DNA from: an uncultured Desulfobulbia bacterium
GTDB taxonomy: Bacteria > Desulfobacterota > Desulfobulbia > Desulfobulbales > CG2-30-60-27
Direction: 5' to 3'
Assembly: GCA_964443295.1 (NCBI GenBank)
Contig: CAYUCH010000002.1
Location: 13,374 to 77,373 of the forward strand
Length of the DNA stretch: 64,000 nt
Shown piece by piece: positions 23,765-32,513 of this stretch. Below the pieces are notes generated by a model, which worked only from the letters and a program-made list of their open reading frames with translations, had not been told where the DNA came from and did no database searches. Each line of letters begins with the position of its first letter. Position 1 is the stretch's first letter. Position numbers and translations under genes: made by a program.

Positions 23765-25390
23765 TTATTTTACAACCCGCATAAACTCGGCAATATCCGT
23801 CCTGCCACCTTCAATAAGAGCCAATGCTGATTGACGCAGGTTGGTCATTCCCTTTTCCATGCCCATATTAGCAATCTCATGAGGAGATCCACCTTCGGCT
23901 ATGAGGACCTTTATTTCATCATCAACCTCTAAGACCTCCCCCACAACCATCCGACCTATATACCCAGTTCCCCGACAGCGTTCACAGCCGACCCTTGAGA
24001 ATTGTTTCTCCCCCTGTAAATCAAAAAATTTCTTGTCCTCGAGAGTCAAATCGACCTCTTCTTTACAGAATGGGCATAATTTTCTGATTAAGCGTTGGGC
24101 AATAACCCCGGAAAGAGTAGATGATAGCATAAAATCTCCCAACCCTAAATCCCGCAATCTTGCCACCGCGCCTGGTGCATCATTAGTATGCAGGGTGGAA
24201 AAGACAAGATGGCCGGTTAGTGCTGCACGGCTTGCCAAAATAGCCGTTTCCTCATCGCGGATCTCACCGATAAGAATAACATCGGGGTCCTGCCGCAGAA
24301 AACTCTTAATTGCCGAAGCAAACGTCACACCTGCCTTGACATTGACCGCCACTTGATGAACCAGGGACATTTGATATTCTATGGGATCCTCGATGGTCAT
24401 TACATTTTTTTCCATGGAATTGACCTTACGAAGAACACTATATAGTGTGGTTGATTTACCTGAGCCTGTGGGTCCCGTGGCCAAAATCATGCCATAGGGC
24501 GCACTTGTCAATCTGGTGACCTGGTCCACCTGATCCTGACTGAAACCCAAGTCTTCCACGGGTATCATACCGCTCCCACCGACCAACACACGAATTACCA
24601 AGTTTTCTCCGTGGGGTGTCGGAATGGTGGAAACACGCAGGTCATAGTTTTCCCCAAGAAACTCAAACGACGTTCGACCATCCTGAGGACGATTCTGGTC
24701 TGCAATATCCATGTCGGAAATAACTTTGAATGAGGCAACCAAACGAGAATGGCATACCTGGGGCAAGGTATAAGTAAGTTGCAAAACACCATCGATACGA
24801 TACGAAACCAAGGTAGCAAAACTAGTTGGGCTGATATGTATATCAGAAGACCCGTTTTCAATCGCTGTTGAAAGGAGAAGCTCGGAAAGTTGTTCAGCGG
24901 AAAAATTTCGATCAGCTTGGGCATCCATGCCGATCTGCTCGACTTCCGCCTGAATGGGATGGTCAGCAAGGTAATAAAGCTGTTCTATTTTCCGGCGCAG
25001 CTCCCCTTCCGGTGCAACTGAAAGAGATAGAGGGAATCGAGAAAACCGCTCCATATTGGAAAGCATCCTGGAATCAAAAGGATCCCCAACTGCCACCACA
25101 AGCTCTCCTTCCACAAAGTCAAATGGAAGGATATTTGACTTCTGGGCAAAATTGAAGGGGATCTGGCCCAAGATTTTTTTATCAGGGGTTGCTCCTTTTA
25201 AATCAGTAAAGGGGAAGCCTGCCTGGTTTGCCAAGACACTAGCGACCTCACTATCAGTCACAAAACCAATGCGCAGAAGAGTTTCACCCAACCGTTCACC
25301 GGTGGTTTTCTGCACCTTCAAGGCATAGACAATCATTTCCTCAGTAATGATGCCGGCTTCTTTTAAAAGCGTTCCTATAGGTTTTCCCAT
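23765..25390 (-). CDS. Type IV pilus assembly ATPase (GspE/PilB/MshE family) with a tandem MshEN-type N-terminal motif, cluster 1
   Basis: Has Walker A (GPTGSGKSTTLY) and a tetracysteine motif (CPFCKEE...CERCRGTGYIGR). The N-terminus reads PIGTLLKEAGIITEEMIVYALKVQ-KTTGE-RLGETLLRIGFVTDSEVASVLANQ. Confidence 0.92.
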   Translation of the reverse strand: MGKPIGTLLKEAGIITEEMIVYALKVQKTTGERLGETLLRIGFVTDSEVASVLANQAGFPFTDLKGATPDKKILGQIPFNFAQKSNILPFDFVEGELVVAVGDPFDSRMLSNMERFSRFPLSLSVAPEGELRRKIEQLYYLADHPIQAEVEQIGMDAQADRNFSAEQLSELLLSTAIENGSSDIHISPTSFATLVSYRIDGVLQLTYTLPQVCHSRLVASFKVISDMDIADQNRPQDGRTSFEFLGENYDLRVSTIPTPHGENLVIRVLVGGSGMIPVEDLGFSQDQVDQVTRLTSAPYGMILATGPTGSGKSTTLYSVLRKVNSMEKNVMTIEDPIEYQMSLVHQVAVNVKAGVTFASAIKSFLRQDPDVILIGEIRDEETAILASRAALTGHLVFSTLHTNDAPGAVARLRDLGLGDFMLSSTLSGVIAQRLIRKLCPFCKEEVDLTLEDKKFFDLQGEKQFSRVGCERCRGTGYIGRMVVGEVLEVDDEIKVLIAEGGSPHEIANMGMEKGMTNLRQSALALIEGGRTDIAEFMRVVK

Positions 25391-27840: not shown

Positions 27841-28283
27841 ACAACCCCCTTTCTCCATCCCCCACGGAGATATACCGAATTAAATGAAAAGTACAAATCT
27901 CTATCCATTCATTTTGATCACATTTATATTAAGAACACATTACATTTACGAATCAAACACAGGGGTCTTTTGTCATTTTTAGTGTTATTTCAGCAAATTA
28001 CGGTTGAAATAAAACTATCCGATTTCCTTCCAAACCGTTAATTCCGTGTAAATTTCATCAAAATATCTAAACAATTTACAGAGTTACATCTTTCATTATA
28101 ATTCTTTTCTAAGTATCGGTCAATTGTTCATTTCTATAATCTGTCGTGGTTTCAAACAGATAACCGTGTGTCTTTTTATTTCTGCAATGCTATACTACAA
28201 TACCAATCGGTATCTTGAACAAAAAACTGAAGGAAAGAACCTTAACTCGTTCTTCCTGCAGCCTTCAAACAGTGGAAGTATTG

Positions 28284-28457
28284 ATGGGCTTGAAACTTCT
28301 TATAATACTCGGGACTCTCTTTATCGGCATTGGCTATTATCTTCTCATGCCTCCCCCGGATGCACAATATGGTGAAGTATTGCAAAGAGTCGTGTGGGGG
28401 TTGGGATTTGTTTTTGCTGGTGGAGCCACCTTGACCCTGTGGTTGTATAAGAGATAG
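28284..28457 (+). CDS. Small two-TM membrane protein (57 aa), function unknown
   Basis: Reads MGLKLLIILGTLFIGIGYYLLMPPP...VVWGLGFVFAGGATLTLWLYKR, giving two clear hydrophobic helices. The track ORF 28215..28457 has an implausible N-terminal extension. There is no strong Shine-Dalgarno sequence. Confidence 0.4.
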   Translation: MGLKLLIILGTLFIGIGYYLLMPPPDAQYGEVLQRVVWGLGFVFAGGATLTLWLYKR

Positions 28458-28529
28458 AAAGGTGAAAGTTCAAAACAAAAAGTGTAAAGTGTTGAGATGG
28501 GTTATGACTTTACTTTCAAGAGGTCCTTC

Positions 28530-29648
28530 ATGTTCAAGCACCAAAAAAAATCACTCTACCTAATGAATAAAAACGCTGGCTTTTCTTTAGTTGAAATAGC
28601 TGTCGTTCTGGTGATTGTCGGCCTTGTCCTCACTGCTGGTACGGCTTTTTGGAGAACAAGCCTAAAGGCCAACAAATGGAACAGTGCTAAAAAAGATTTG
28701 ACAACAATCATTCAAGCACTAAAAACTTTCGCCGCCACACAAGGTAGTCTTCCTTGTCCTGACTCAGTTAACGCAGATGGTGTTGCAGATGCATGTGCCA
28801 GCTGCACTCCCCCATGTGGACTTCCTTTTACCACTTTGGCTCTGCCTTTTACCGGCTCAACATTACCAGGTTTCGATCAATGGAACCATGCCCAGCTCCA
28901 GTATGAACCACAAATTCTTTTAACAACCACCAACCAACTTACCTTTTGCGGTACTTTGTATGGAATAATGGTCAATCAAGCTACCGGCCCTGCAACCATT
29001 CTGCCATGCGTTACAGATGTGACAGATGCTGGCGATAATGGACAAATAAATGCCGCAGGATTAGGCTATACTGTTGCAGCAGTGGTAATTAATGACGGAG
29101 ACATACTCGGCTTGTCAGGAAAAAACAGTAACGCAGATGGCGAGTACGAGATGGCGCGCAATCCATATCAGGGAGCAGCTTATAATGACCTGGTTGGAGA
29201 ACTCACCTTAAACGATTTATACGCAACAACATGTAATGCAAACAATACACAGATCCTGTTACAGGGTGTAGTTGCAAATGGAGCTACTGATGGTCCGGTG
29301 GGACTTGATGATGGTATTGCCGCTTACATAGGAATGACAGGTGTGGGAGGACCTTGTGTGCCAGTACCCGAAGGAGGAACGCTACCCATTTTCATTGGTC
29401 AGACTATCAATGTTTTCTTTGACAACAACCCTGATTGCACCATATCCGGAGACAATGAAATTATTGGCCTGTCTTTTTTTGATGGCACTGTGGATGTGCA
29501 CCCATTCTGTCCGACCTGTGATAGCAGTGGTGGAGTTTTTGATTTGATTGACTGTGATCTCTGTGCTGCAACCCCAAATGGAATTATAGAAATTGATGCA
29601 AATCCAGATCCTGTCGCGGGAGCATTGCCAGTTCTTAACAATATTTGA
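28530..29648 (+). CDS. Large atypical type IV pilin-like protein (372 aa) with a cysteine-rich C-terminal domain
   Basis: AAGAGG (28518-28523) lies 6 nt before the ATG at 28530. The protein reads MFKHQKKSLYLMNKNAG|FSLVEIAVVLVIVGLVLTAG. By my count the globular part has 13 Cys, including the CASC, CPTC and CDLC pairs. Confidence 0.8.
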   Translation: MFKHQKKSLYLMNKNAGFSLVEIAVVLVIVGLVLTAGTAFWRTSLKANKWNSAKKDLTTIIQALKTFAATQGSLPCPDSVNADGVADACASCTPPCGLPFTTLALPFTGSTLPGFDQWNHAQLQYEPQILLTTTNQLTFCGTLYGIMVNQATGPATILPCVTDVTDAGDNGQINAAGLGYTVAAVVINDGDILGLSGKNSNADGEYEMARNPYQGAAYNDLVGELTLNDLYATTCNANNTQILLQGVVANGATDGPVGLDDGIAAYIGMTGVGGPCVPVPEGGTLPIFIGQTINVFFDNNPDCTISGDNEIIGLSFFDGTVDVHPFCPTCDSSGGVFDLIDCDLCAATPNGIIEIDANPDPVAGALPVLNNI

Positions 29649-29894
29649 ATGAATACGAAGGGATCCTTTTCCTTTCTCTCCTTCTAAAATCAAACAGCCA
29701 AATCTCAAAAGGGGACGGATTTATTTTTTTCATGTACTCAAGAGCCTCTTGCTGTTTCCGTATTTATGAACACAATTTTCCGCTTTCTTGGAAACTGATG
29801 AAATCTTGAGAATTTCGAGTGTGACACCAAGATGCTATCTTCTTGAAATCAAACAAATAACTTGAAAAATTAATTCCCGGCCCAGTTCTTGCAA

Positions 29895-29917
29895 GTTTTC
29901 ATAATTATTATGAAAAC
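29895..29917. promoter_or_regulatory. Perfect 23-bp palindrome (11-1-11), a candidate operator upstream of the DRR-repeat ORF
   Basis: Reads GTTTTCATAAT T ATTATGAAAAC. It lies about 83 bp upstream of the ATG at 30000. Confidence 0.45.
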
Positions 29918-29999
29918 AAATTGCGCTTTATTAAAGATAAGCTAGGATATTAACAGGCAATTTTCTCTTCCTCACCTTTGTTTTTTTACCGGAGGCAAC

Positions 30000-30239
30000 A
30001 TGAATCGTTGCGGATATGATAGACGCTGTGACAATGACCGACGACAAACGTATGATGTAAATTATTTCGAAAACGGCGGATGCGAACGTCGCAAACGCCA
30101 AGATCGTCGGATGACTGGAGAAACGCGCGATGGCTGGCAACGGATAAATGAGTTCAGCAGTATTGCTGTTGGCAATTGCCCATCCGAACAAAAACCAATA
30201 AAGAATACCGAGGGCATACCAACCTGGGTAATTAGCTGA
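30000..30239 (+). CDS. Small Arg/Asp-repeat protein (79 aa), unknown function, a free-standing transcription unit
   Basis: A GGAGG Shine-Dalgarno sequence (29991-29995) precedes the ATG. The protein reads MNRCGYDRRCDNDRRQTYDVNYFENGGCERRKRQDRRMTGETRDGW..., with four (D/E)RR units. An intrinsic terminator follows it. Confidence 0.65.
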   Translation: MNRCGYDRRCDNDRRQTYDVNYFENGGCERRKRQDRRMTGETRDGWQRINEFSSIAVGNCPSEQKPIKNTEGIPTWVIS

Positions 30240-30283
30240 ATTGTTCTTTGTTCATAGTAAATACTGAACTTTTACTATTGTAA

Positions 30284-30316
30284 GCGCTTCCAGAGTAGAA
30301 TTGGAGGCGCTTTTTT
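30284..30316 (+). terminator. Rho-independent terminator after the DRR-repeat ORF
   Basis: The stem is GCGCTTCCA / TGGAGGCGC (9 bp, one G-U pair) with a 9-nt loop, followed by TTTTTT. Confidence 0.8.
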
Positions 30317-30381
30317 GCACGTCAGCCCAAACTCCCCACACCTTCCCCTTTTAAGTTACCCTGACATCCTCCCCTATCACC

Positions 30382-30415
30382 TTGACATTATGGAAAAAAC
30401 AGTACATATTGTACT
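30382..30415 (+). promoter_or_regulatory. Candidate sigma70 promoter of the cluster 2 assembly operon, with a palindrome overlapping the -10
   Basis: TTGACA (30382-30387), a 17-nt spacer, then CATATT (30405-30410). The palindrome AGTACA-TAT-TGTACT spans 30401-30415. Confidence 0.4.
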
Positions 30416-30530
30416 AAAATTCTTACACATTTTCCCATAGGCATTGCCATGCAAAACACATGCAGACCGGTAATAGCTGTTTCATTATTCCTCCCATACA
30501 TAAAGTTATGGATTCTATTTTCTGGAGCCC

Positions 30531-32513
30531 ATGGTTAAGCGCGACGACACATCAGCCACAGAAAAACTTCTGGAAATGATTCGGGAGGAGCAGAAAGGCG
30601 TGGACTCGTCCAATCCCCCTGAATCAGACCCTGTGGAAGTAGCGAATCTGCCATTAACCATGGAAAAGGACATCACTCCTGAACAAAAAGAAGAAAAAAA
30701 AGACACCATTCAGGGTTCACCCGAAACTATCCTAAGACAAACAACACCATCAGACAAAAAGCCTGAACAGCCCCGAACTCTATCATCAGTGTCACCCCCA
30801 TTGGCATTTCTACCAACAGGGGAGAAAGATGGTATTGGAATAGATATCCGTCCCGATGGCATCGCCTTGGTCAGAGTGGTTGCCACCAAGTCTCGCTTTG
30901 TGCCTCAAAGCAGTCAATTTATTTCTTTTGACTTGGAGAAGCCGTTACTTGAAACCGGCATGGTTACTACCCTGATTGAATCTGACTGGTTTGCCTCTTT
31001 TCTGAAAAAAAGCTTATCTGACTTCTGCGGCACAGCAAAAAAGACGAAAATCTGGTGTGCTCTGCCCCGTGAAGCTGTTGAAAGCCATAATGTCATAATC
31101 CCAAAAGTACCGGACAAGGAACTAGTCAACACCGTATTTTGGTCTGCGAAGAAAGAAGTCTCCTTCGACCGTAATGCAATTATTCTGGATTTTGAGCCGG
31201 TGAAAGAAATCAGCTCTGATGCAGGCTCAAAACTCCTCTGTCTTATTTTTCTTGCTACCAAGCGAGAAGTCGAGGGTCTCCAAAAACTATTCAATAAAAT
31301 CGGCTTCCCATTAGCAGGCCTCGCATCACCCGCCACAGCTTTTGGCAATGAAATCCACCAGGGGAACATACAGGTAAAGGATGAAAGCTTTGCGCATCTC
31401 TCTCTTGGTGAAGAGAAGTCCTTTATTGAACTCTATTTCCGAAACCAGCTCATTTTCTCCCGGGATATAAAAACAGGCGTTGGCAGCCTTGTCGATTCAA
31501 TAATTGGAGCTGCCGAAACCCAAGAAATTGTCATTGAAGAACAGACCATTCGCCAATGGTTACTCGGCACCCCAAAGGAGCAGGATACTGCAGGCAGAAA
31601 TGACTTTTTCAGTACTGAAAAAGATGTGTTTTCCACAGAATTACCAGCCGCCCTGAGACTGGCAAGGCAGACGGAAAGGACATTTGATTACTGCAAAAAC
31701 AATTTCAGCCTGCCTCGTTCCACAATGGTATACCTCTCTGGTCTCAAAGAGAACGGCGCGGGTCTGGCCGATTACATGACAAGTGAAACAGGGATTGAAT
31801 GCTCCCTCTATCTCCCTGAAACAGCACCGTCTTTCGGTAGTTCCCATTTGTTAACCGCCTATGGCATGGCACTCTCCAACGAAAAAACGTCCCAAAATTT
31901 TCTTCATACCTATGAAGAAAAAGAGCGGCAAAAAAATATTTTCCATACCAATAAAATCATCGCCGCGGCCTGTATTGTCCTACTCCTCTGTTGCTCTGCA
32001 TTCTATTTCACCCAGAGCCATCAGATTGCTGCAAAAAAAGAGACCCTTGCCACCCTTGATAAAGAAATCAAAAACTATTCACGGAATATGTCCGTCACCT
32101 CCAGTCCAGAGCAGTTGCACGCAAAGTTGAAGCAACTGAAAACAACATCTGCTAATACTCTTCTTTTAGCAGAACGGTATTTTCCGATGGCTTTAATCCA
32201 GGAACTCACTGGCAATCTACCGACAGAGTTAAAACTCATCCAGCTTGACCTGCTCCCGGGAAAAGATGATTTAGAGAGTAAGAAGAAAGGCATCTCCTCG
32301 GTCATACTGTCGGGGATAGTCACGGGACAAGAAGAACAAAGAGAATTCCTCTTGACTAAATATCTTCGTAAATTATCTGACAGCTCTTTTTTTAGTACCT
32401 CCAAGGTCACCAAGAGAGGGAAATTCAGCTATAGAGAAGATAATGTTCTCGGCTTCACTATCTCTGCCGAAATCGAACCAAGTGCTATTAATCTGCTTAA
32501 AAGAGAGCAATAA
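30531..32513 (+). CDS. MshI-like PilM/PilN(/PilO) fusion protein (cluster 2)
   Basis: 660 aa with a charged N-terminal tail, a PilM-like cytoplasmic domain, one TM helix (IIAAACIVLLLCCSAFYF) and a periplasmic domain. It is the first gene of the assembly operon. Confidence 0.65.
   Translation: MVKRDDTSATEKLLEMIREEQKGVDSSNPPESDPVEVANLPLTMEKDITPEQKEEKKDTIQGSPETILRQTTPSDKKPEQPRTLSSVSPPLAFLPTGEKDGIGIDIRPDGIALVRVVATKSRFVPQSSQFISFDLEKPLLETGMVTTLIESDWFASFLKKSLSDFCGTAKKTKIWCALPREAVESHNVIIPKVPDKELVNTVFWSAKKEVSFDRNAIILDFEPVKEISSDAGSKLLCLIFLATKREVEGLQKLFNKIGFPLAGLASPATAFGNEIHQGNIQVKDESFAHLSLGEEKSFIELYFRNQLIFSRDIKTGVGSLVDSIIGAAETQEIVIEEQTIRQWLLGTPKEQDTAGRNDFFSTEKDVFSTELPAALRLARQTERTFDYCKNNFSLPRSTMVYLSGLKENGAGLADYMTSETGIECSLYLPETAPSFGSSHLLTAYGMALSNEKTSQNFLHTYEEKERQKNIFHTNKIIAAACIVLLLCCSAFYFTQSHQIAAKKETLATLDKEIKNYSRNMSVTSSPEQLHAKLKQLKTTSANTLLLAERYFPMALIQELTGNLPTELKLIQLDLLPGKDDLESKKKGISSVILSGIVTGQEEQREFLLTKYLRKLSDSSFFSTSKVTKRGKFSYREDNVLGFTISAEIEPSAINLLKREQ

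Follow-up and report, generated by a model that had tools for sequence, protein, structure and literature searches.

A small arginine-rich protein encoded between pilus genes of an uncultured Desulfobulbia bacterium belongs to a widespread, uncurated family and is a possible receptor for cyclic di-GMP

What is the function of a gene for a 79-residue, arginine-rich protein that stands alone between two sets of pilus genes? The question is posed by a 64,000-nucleotide stretch of DNA (the window) from contig CAYUCH010000002.1 of an uncultured Desulfobulbia bacterium. In it, the open reading frame (ORF) at 30000–30239 on the forward strand lies between the gene for a 383-amino acid pilin with a prepilin N-methylation motif (28497–29648) and a downstream operon encoding a 660-amino acid PilM-like protein. 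The wider region contains two mannose-sensitive haemagglutinin (MSHA)-like clusters, the ATPase genes of both matching the Pfam family MshEN. An earlier note on this DNA had described the ORF as a free-standing gene rich in (D/E)RR repeats and had suggested that its product could bind nucleic acid or a nucleotide second messenger and is a candidate regulator of the pilus clusters. Comparison with its relatives places the 79-amino acid protein, which stands alone, in a widespread family that has not been curated and is found mainly in the Desulfobacterota. As to function, we tentatively favour a receptor or buffer for cyclic di-GMP (c-di-GMP) or a related nucleotide, one which would fold upon binding; this choice, held with less than even confidence, is made because the (D/E)RR (hereafter DRR) domain is fused to PilZ and GGDEF domains elsewhere and its motifs are analogous to those of the CleD peptide.

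On the comparative evidence the ORF is a genuine conserved gene. An exhaustive HMMER search (phmmer, 79-residue query) of 1.84 billion cluster representatives, with clusters formed at 50% identity, returned 264 representatives at E≤1e-3, of which 9 were also below the stricter limit of E≤1e-10. Of the 264, nearly all are 57–120 amino acids long and align to query residues 2–60; a word-indexed single-sequence protein search retrieved nothing beyond the 79-residue protein itself. Eight contigs encoding this protein are approximately 100% identical to the window and so carry no comparative signal. The five closest homologues (P0002/L007, P0003/L129, P0004/L130, L010 and L080) share 49–58% identity with the window protein, P0002 and P0003 aligning from end to end and P0004 through residue 59. 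The ATG start is common to P0002, P0003 and P0004. The Shine-Dalgarno sequence, read directly on the forward strand of the window as GGAGG (29991–29995, 4 nt 5' of the ATG), is GGAGG or GGAGA at the equivalent site in the homologues. Substitutions between homologues are concentrated at the third codon positions of the sense frame; between L130 and L010 they number 3, 9 and 28 at positions 1, 2 and 3, respectively.

These data also bear on the competing view that the ORF is spurious, or that the 86-amino acid antisense ORF (29931–30191, reverse strand) is the real gene instead. It is true that the antisense frame is open over 86 codons, but an open antisense frame runs the length of the gene in all of the homologues examined because the composition is rich in Arg codons, and this effect, together with the sense-frame substitution pattern, leads us to judge the antisense ORF no gene. 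The position-specific amino acid conservation among the 264 homologous representatives and the conservation of start codon, Shine-Dalgarno sequence and terminator point the same way. The spurious-ORF reading is already refuted by these conservation data, and the chance that it is correct is negligible. The grounds on which the earlier note would have given up its gene call included a lack of conservation of the ORF or its repeat pattern in related genomes and conservation of the antisense ORF instead; on the first count the comparison revealed strong conservation, and on the second it decided for the sense frame.

The family alignment (151 sequences) delimits a conserved domain of approximately 58 amino acids (residues 3–58; 30006–30173, forward strand) composed of five (D/E)RR units and invariant Tyr, Phe, Gly and Trp residues, in the pattern DRR-x3-DRR-x2-Y-x3-YF-x2-GG-x-ERR-x3-ERR-x3-ExR-x-GW-x-RV-x2-WSS. 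The four units recognized previously, YDRR (residues 6–9), NDRR (12–15), CERR (28–31) and QDRR (34–37), are present in the 79-residue protein and conserved in the 151 sequences. To these a fifth can be added, which is degenerate in this protein (ETR, 41–43) and ERR in most relatives. Residues D7, R8, R9, D13, R14, R15, E29, R30, R31, (E/D)35, R36, R37, E41 and R43 are 85–100% conserved in this alignment; Y18, Y22 (91%), F23, G26, G27 (94%), G45, W46, R48, W52 and S54 are also sharply conserved. Conservation throughout the family puts the repeat pattern well outside what chance would produce. The highly conserved residues are all Arg, Asp/Glu, aromatic, Gly or Ser, and a hydrophobic core is not evident.

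Two features that the earlier note had singled out are real in this protein and do not extend to the family. The three cysteines (Cys4, Cys10 and Cys28) are Ser or Val in most members, and the R-x-x-x-R spacing in RQDRR (R33-x3-R37) hinges on R33, a position at which only 12% of members have Arg. Judged by the alignment, both are incidental. Metal binding via cysteine was considered and rejected, as the cysteines are not conserved. The C-terminal tail (residues 59–79, forward strand) is common to the closest subfamily only, a similar ending being found in four of the five closest homologues (P0002, P0004, L010 and L080); a shorter subfamily retains just the N-terminal module.

Assignment to a known family had not been possible from the sequence by eye, and library searches bear this out. 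The 79-residue protein has no Pfam match at E≤1, and the domain has no credible match in Pfam, NCBIfam, PHROGs, PADLOC or the PDB sequences, the single PHROGs match of homologue P0002 (E = 0.02) being insignificant. Such members as have a name in their sources are called "hypothetical protein". A survey of GTDB species representatives with a degenerate DNA pattern, back-translated from the conserved residues, revealed at least 119 genome loci. Almost all belong to metagenome-assembled genomes (MAGs) of Desulfobacterales, Desulfosarcinaceae, Desulfocapsaceae and Desulfatiglandales; one comes from the cultured Desulfosarcina alkanivorans PL12 and a few from Gammaproteobacteria (Arenicellales). 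The cluster representatives are likewise mostly from Desulfobacterota and 60–120 amino acids long. Many genomes have two or three loci, with tandem copies in, for example, L016, L074 and L120; the 64-kb window has a single copy. A nameless family of small proteins of this size merits a curated model even if its ligand differs from c-di-GMP.

Some relatives depart from the usual form. No additional Pfam domain was found in the longer homologues P0238, P0185, P0216, P0089 and P0020, of which at least the first three look like products of mis-called gene boundaries. A 512-amino acid ORF in a gammaproteobacterial MAG (L069, 938–2477) ends in two half-modules in tandem, each corresponding to the N-terminal half (DRR-x3-DRR…EYF..GG.ERR); the first 440 amino acids of the ORF contain a Cys-x9-Cys-x2-Cys motif (CTWARAHGGGCLMC) and have no Pfam match. 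One subfamily (L014, L057, L058, L067 and L121, with truncated copies in L015, L032 and L098) consists of approximately the N-terminal two-thirds of the domain, some copies ending in RRYxWDMTR. In five loci of this subfamily a radical-SAM/SPASM gene is situated less than 3 kb away, the product of which looks, from its sequence, like an enzyme of the heme-biosynthesis type. These neighbours suggested a ribosomally synthesized and post-translationally modified peptide precursor. This was rejected: the whole 58-amino acid domain is conserved, and the radical-SAM neighbours are limited to one subfamily with conserved gene order.

What links the family to c-di-GMP is the company that the domain keeps in larger proteins. 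The DRR domain is followed by a PilZ domain in P0058, P0049, P0061 and P0092, and a profile of these four fusions retrieved at least 33 further clusters (90% identity) of 190–222 amino acids at a query coverage of at least 93%, many of them pre-annotated with PF07238. The PilZ part of the fusions keeps its own RxxxR and DxSxxG motifs. In P0073 the order is GGDEF (E = 3e-32) and then the DRR domain. A neighbouring gene gives a further link in L016, where a PilZ gene and one for a PilT-like ATPase adjoin two tandem DRR genes. The only other clear above-threshold Pfam domain in family members is the zinc ribbon fused in P0007, and ten further long relatives or long ORFs possess no Pfam domain.

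The second line of argument concerns folding and motif. An AlphaFold2 model of the 79-residue protein, built with 75 homologues, has a mean predicted local distance difference test (pLDDT) score of 64 and practically no secondary structure except a short hairpin at residues 46–56. In a model of a DRR-PilZ fusion the PilZ barrel scores 70–91 and the DRR part 37–53. Both models are of low confidence in the DRR domain. Taken with the lack of conserved hydrophobic positions, they suggest that the segment would be disordered by itself and would fold when it meets a ligand or partner. The CleD peptide offers a parallel: it is unfolded in its apo form and binds an intercalated c-di-GMP dimer via the motif DRR-x11-(R/K)RxxD and two stacking tyrosines, with Gly165 critical for binding (PMC7382256). 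Using hhalign, the family segment "g-DRR--ydLdY" is paired with "GPDRRRFNSADY" of CleD. The recurrent PilZ fusions, the one GGDEF fusion and this resemblance lend indirect support to the nucleotide second-messenger idea of the earlier note.

On the reading that we tentatively prefer, the DRR domain would be unfolded alone and take up its fold around a second messenger that contains guanine, c-di-GMP in intercalated form being the most probable one. In a contact scheme modelled on the binding of c-di-GMP by the arginine-rich peptide of CleD, the paired arginines would contact the Hoogsteen edges of guanine and the adjoining Asp or Glu residues the Watson-Crick edges, while Tyr, Phe and Trp side chains would stack on the bases. 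Within the c-di-GMP network the free-standing protein could then serve as a small receptor, an adaptor or a buffer. MshEN is a c-di-GMP-binding domain, and the network would here include both flanking pilus clusters, whose ATPases match it. A bolder version sees in the (D/E)RR domain a natural receptor class for cyclic dinucleotides that would be new: free-standing, folded by its ligand and serving as a c-di-GMP sponge or adaptor, with enough Arg, acidic and aromatic units to wrap more than one intercalated dimer. It would be present as several paralogues per genome across the Desulfobacterota, with some copies, including this one, under sigma-54 control. In this full form the proposal is slightly more doubtful. 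Receptors for c-di-GMP are hard to spot by sequence and most are thought still to be undiscovered; should the domain indeed bind c-di-GMP, sulfate reducers and related bacteria, in which signalling by second messengers has been little studied, would gain a new class of receptor or buffer.

Several observations weigh against a c-di-GMP receptor. The hhalign probability is only 3%, so that there is no significant homology to CleD, and the spacing differs: the family has D13-R-R-x14-R30-R31-x3-(D/E)35 where CleD has DRR-x11-(R/K)R-x2-D, and no register fits. Only a single contig carries the GGDEF-DRR fusion. Genes for c-di-GMP functions were not enriched in a census of 150 flanking genes. The PilZ fusion would equally fit DRR as an output or docking module, and the basic average of the family (20% Arg, median domain charge +6.9, pI 10.6) would also fit nucleic-acid binding. 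Each of the last two points leads to a rival explanation. The protein may be a small basic RNA or DNA binder, acting through its Arg-rich motif and aromatic stacking; a stress protein, an RNA chaperone or a factor associated with the ribosome or nucleoid would be examples. This possibility keeps weight because the family is basic on average; the conserved aromatics, the zinc-ribbon fusion in P0007 and the occurrence of several scattered, independently transcribed paralogues per genome beside varied genes are also as one might expect of such a factor. On the other hand an acidic residue is conserved beside each Arg pair, the window protein has a net charge of only +2.5, the library scans gave no match to a known fold or family that binds nucleic acid, and the sole recurrent fusion partner in the Pfam scans is PilZ, a c-di-GMP domain. 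We consider a nucleic-acid binder unlikely, though a serious candidate.

Alternatively, DRR may be a protein-protein docking or output module for a common cellular target, with PilZ and GGDEF providing c-di-GMP input or output and the stand-alone copies acting without nucleotide. The PilZ part of the fusions keeps RxxxR and DxSxxG, so that a second binding site is not needed, and the disorder of the domain in the AlphaFold2 models is shared with many docking motifs. Domains N-terminal to PilZ are, moreover, often output modules. The PilZN domains offer a comparison for such N-terminal modules (bioRxiv 10.1101/814665). However, the neighbourhoods contain no conserved partner gene, and the conserved residues are almost all Arg, Asp/Glu, aromatic or Gly, a set to be expected of a site for nucleotides more than of a surface for proteins, which leaves a docking function unlikely in our estimation.

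The remaining explanation is that of the earlier note, in which the gene, by its position between the 383-amino acid pilin gene and the PilM-like operon, encodes a small regulator dedicated to the two pilus clusters beside it and acting at the transcriptional or post-transcriptional level. Here the wider family disagrees. The closest homologues (49–58% identity) adjoin LptC/SIMPL or ParA-like genes and no pili. Among the 150 flanking genes there is no dominant family (radical SAM 5, FolD 3, AhpC 3, META 3, GAF 3), and no pilus family is among the commonest. Pilus genes are within reach in only 4 of approximately 120 loci, so that the proposed co-occurrence with MSHA-like or type IV pilus clusters is not a conserved one, and many paralogues lie in unrelated contexts. 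No DNA-binding fold was detected. Two other subfamilies or lineages do adjoin type IV pilus genes, and both speak for the regulator idea: the NPKP-tail subfamily next to a PilM-like/secretin cluster or pilin gene, and L016 with a PilT-like ATPase and a PilZ gene. Taken together, a dedicated pilus regulator is improbable and weakly supported at best, and position alone is no ground for annotating the small gene as one.

The two pilus-associated arrangements are of some interest in themselves. The NPKP-tail subfamily (L026, 5339–7795; L077, 628–3880; L060, 4487–6369) has a fixed place, divergent from a homologous PilM-like/T2SSB/secretin cluster or pilin gene. In L077 and L060 a gene for a Tpt1/KptA RNA 2'-phosphotransferase is found on its other side. 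The L060 copy has an in-frame stop before the domain, and its start codon is ambiguous or the gene is decaying. In L016 (5090–7898) the two tandem DRR genes come after genes for a PilT-like T2SSE ATPase, a PilZ protein (E = 6e-14) and a PIN-domain protein, in that order.

How is the gene in the window expressed? It is free-standing, as the earlier note had it, and monocistronic, with its own Shine-Dalgarno sequence, and forms its own transcription unit ending at its own terminator; the palindrome, GGAGG, ORF and terminator listed there are all present in their places. The intrinsic terminator (30282–30318, forward strand) has an 11-bp stem with arms at 30282–30292 and 30302–30312, one G-U pair and a 9-nt loop, followed by TTTTTT (folding: -17.4 kcal/mol, z = -3.0). 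This is the GC-rich hairpin directly before a U run by which intrinsic terminators are recognized; the 9-nt loop was the sole reason why a simple scanner passed it over. A GC-rich hairpin with a T run follows the stop codon in all five of the closest homologues, that of L129 being weaker (T4). On the 3' side of the terminator, 30338–30410 contains the direct-repeat pairs ACACCTTCCCCT/ACATCCTCCCCT and ACCCTGACAT/ACCTTGACAT and then a sigma-70-like promoter, TTGACA-17-CATATT (30382–30410, forward strand), a consensus match only (10/12), upstream of the PilM-like operon. This promoter marks the 3' boundary of the transcription unit of the small gene; from their sequence and position, it and the repeats may be the promoter and regulatory sites of the PilM-like operon itself. 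The predicted 95-nt leader (5' untranslated region) has no stable structure on folding (z = +1.4), and an Rfam scan of 29400–30800 gave nothing credible; a riboswitch or small RNA was rejected on these two grounds.

Sigma-54 promoters were scored over 12 positions of TGGCACG-N4-TTGCW with the spacing GG-N10-GC. The candidate -24/-12 element CGGCCCAGTTCTTGCA (29878–29893, forward strand; GG at 29879–29880, GC at 29891–29892) has the right spacing and 9/12 consensus matches, and would place the start at approximately 29904. Against it stands the fact that 9/12 or better occurs in 4.6% of random 260-nt segments of the window. The closest homologues have far better elements: all five (L007, L129, L130, L010 and L080) have a site of 10–12/12, 49–162 nt 5' of the ATG, where the background per 260 nt is 1% for at least 10/12 and 0.05% for 12/12. 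The element is also the best-conserved non-coding block among L130, L010 and L080. Since the closest homologues carry strong sites, the weak match in the window is credible. Family-wide, only 8 of 129 genes have a site of at least 10/12, and sigma-54 control as a general rule was rejected on that count. Among the ten window ORFs scanned there is no rpoN or enhancer-binding-protein gene. Two short inverted repeats, TTTCC-N8-GGAAA (29777–29794) and GTGTGACAC (29819–29827), lie approximately 80–125 nt 5' of the candidate element, and CGGAAA…TTTCCG repeats occur at a similar distance in L130 and L080. By their placement they could be sites for an enhancer-binding protein; their arms are short, and chance is also possible.

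The predicted start falls within the perfect 23-bp palindrome GTTTTCATAAT-T-ATTATGAAAAC (29895–29917, 11+1+11, no strand assigned), a candidate operator. It is unique in the 64-kb window, where 0.01 chance matches are expected. If the promoter call is right, the palindrome would work not through an RNA hairpin but as a DNA operator over the melting region. The 15 bp at its centre, TCATAAT-T-ATTATGA, agree with 12 of the 14 positions that the PerR consensus TTATAATNATTATAA specifies; the count is also 12 of 14 for the Gram-positive Zur consensus, in the core of TAAATCGTAATNATTACGATTTA (PMC545781 quotes both), and for the Fur 7-1-7 unit. This last, TGATAAT-N-ATTATCA, was derived here from the 19-bp Fur box GATAATGATAATCATTATC, which consists of two overlapping 7-1-7 repeats (PMC11353095). 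From each of the three, namely the Fur unit, PerR TTATAAT-N-ATTATAA and the Zur core TCGTAAT-N-ATTACGA, the palindrome core thus differs once per half-site, and it has no mismatch to the degenerate form T(G/T/C)(A/G)TAAT-N-ATTA(T/C)(C/A/G)A. The hexamer TGAAAA, known from the Fur box of delta-proteobacteria (WTGAAAATNATTTTCAW), is contained in the outer arms, though everted and out of register. Like repressor sites the palindrome overlaps a promoter, here the candidate one, which is of sigma-54 instead of sigma-70 type.

A Fur-family operator is therefore a plausible lead as far as the consensus goes. The points on the other side are that this assignment comes from consensus similarity alone, that there is no second copy in the window, that the palindrome is not present in the promoters of the homologues, that no clear enrichment of Fur-like boxes was seen upstream of other family members, and that no Fur-family gene is among the ten window ORFs scanned (others lying outside that scan). 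On balance the small gene is probably read from a sigma-54 promoter, the putative start of which is covered by the Fur-family-like palindrome. In the approximately 120 loci, AhpC/TSA peroxiredoxin (3) and OsmC (2) genes are found among the immediate neighbours of DRR genes. These are of mild interest given the PerR/Fur-like palindrome in the window, and the numbers are too small to interpret.

Two observations concern the neighbouring pilus genes. Just 5' of the 383-amino acid pilin gene is an 80-amino acid gene (28215–28457, equivalent to 8216–8458 of L001) which is called in the L001 annotation only. In the first pilus cluster, the gene for the MshE-type ATPase (23765–25390) is a single 541-amino acid call in L001, L003 and L005 and is split into 157 and 375 amino acids in L002 and L004 (3766–5391), the contigs being approximately 99.98% identical. 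The split may, from the sequences, be a natural frameshift or nonsense polymorphism.

How, lastly, does the family compare with known c-di-GMP-binding systems? The commonest fusion partner, PilZ (PF07238), resembles DRR in using an Arg-rich flexible segment, with RxxxR in the case of PilZ. The 79-residue protein is, however, no member of that family: it has no PilZ match, no beta-barrel and no (D/N)xSxxG, and its sole RxxxR is formed via the non-conserved R33. The BldD-type c-di-GMP motif is RXD-X8-RXXD. The I-site of GGDEF proteins, RxxD, has been compared with the CleD motif (PMC7382256). Both resemble the family in pairing Arg with Asp or Glu in short motifs; the family unit, RR-x3-(D/E), is one residue longer than RxxD and lacks the helical DNA-binding or GGDEF scaffold.

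The closest parallel is with the arginine-rich region (ARR) of the CheY-like Cle proteins of Caulobacter, from one of which, CleD, the c-di-GMP-sequestering peptide is derived (PMC7382256; PMC5677366). The two differ in architecture and distribution. In the family the Tyr-to-Gly and Gly-to-RR distances are 2–3 residues longer than in CleD and the overall spacing 3–4 residues longer; there are five (D/E)RR units instead of two motifs, and the conserved GW-x-RV-x2-WSS is extra. The ARR of CleD is a C-terminal extension of a CheY-like receiver, whereas the DRR domain is free-standing or fused to PilZ, and Pfam scans of the window protein and 19 longer or fused relatives gave no Response_reg match. 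The CleD system is found in Alphaproteobacteria and the family in Desulfobacterota. The CleD peptide is unfolded without ligand; the DRR domain is so in AlphaFold2 models only. What they share is a short linear Arg-rich segment with adjoining Asp. Both DRRRFNSADY of CleD and DRRxxYDLDY of the family begin with DRR and have D-Y six residues on, followed by Gly, an Arg pair and an acid. On direct comparison the stacking Tyr is found seven residues after the second Arg of DRR in both (R15 to Y22; R156 to Y163 in CleD), and a Gly precedes the second Arg cluster. Both are tied to c-di-GMP signalling, the family via its PilZ and GGDEF fusions. The resemblance is one of mechanism by analogy and not of family membership, and it gives this compact domain, which spans 264 clusters outside Pfam and NCBIfam and is recurrently fused to PilZ, the ingredients of the only linear c-di-GMP-binding peptide known.

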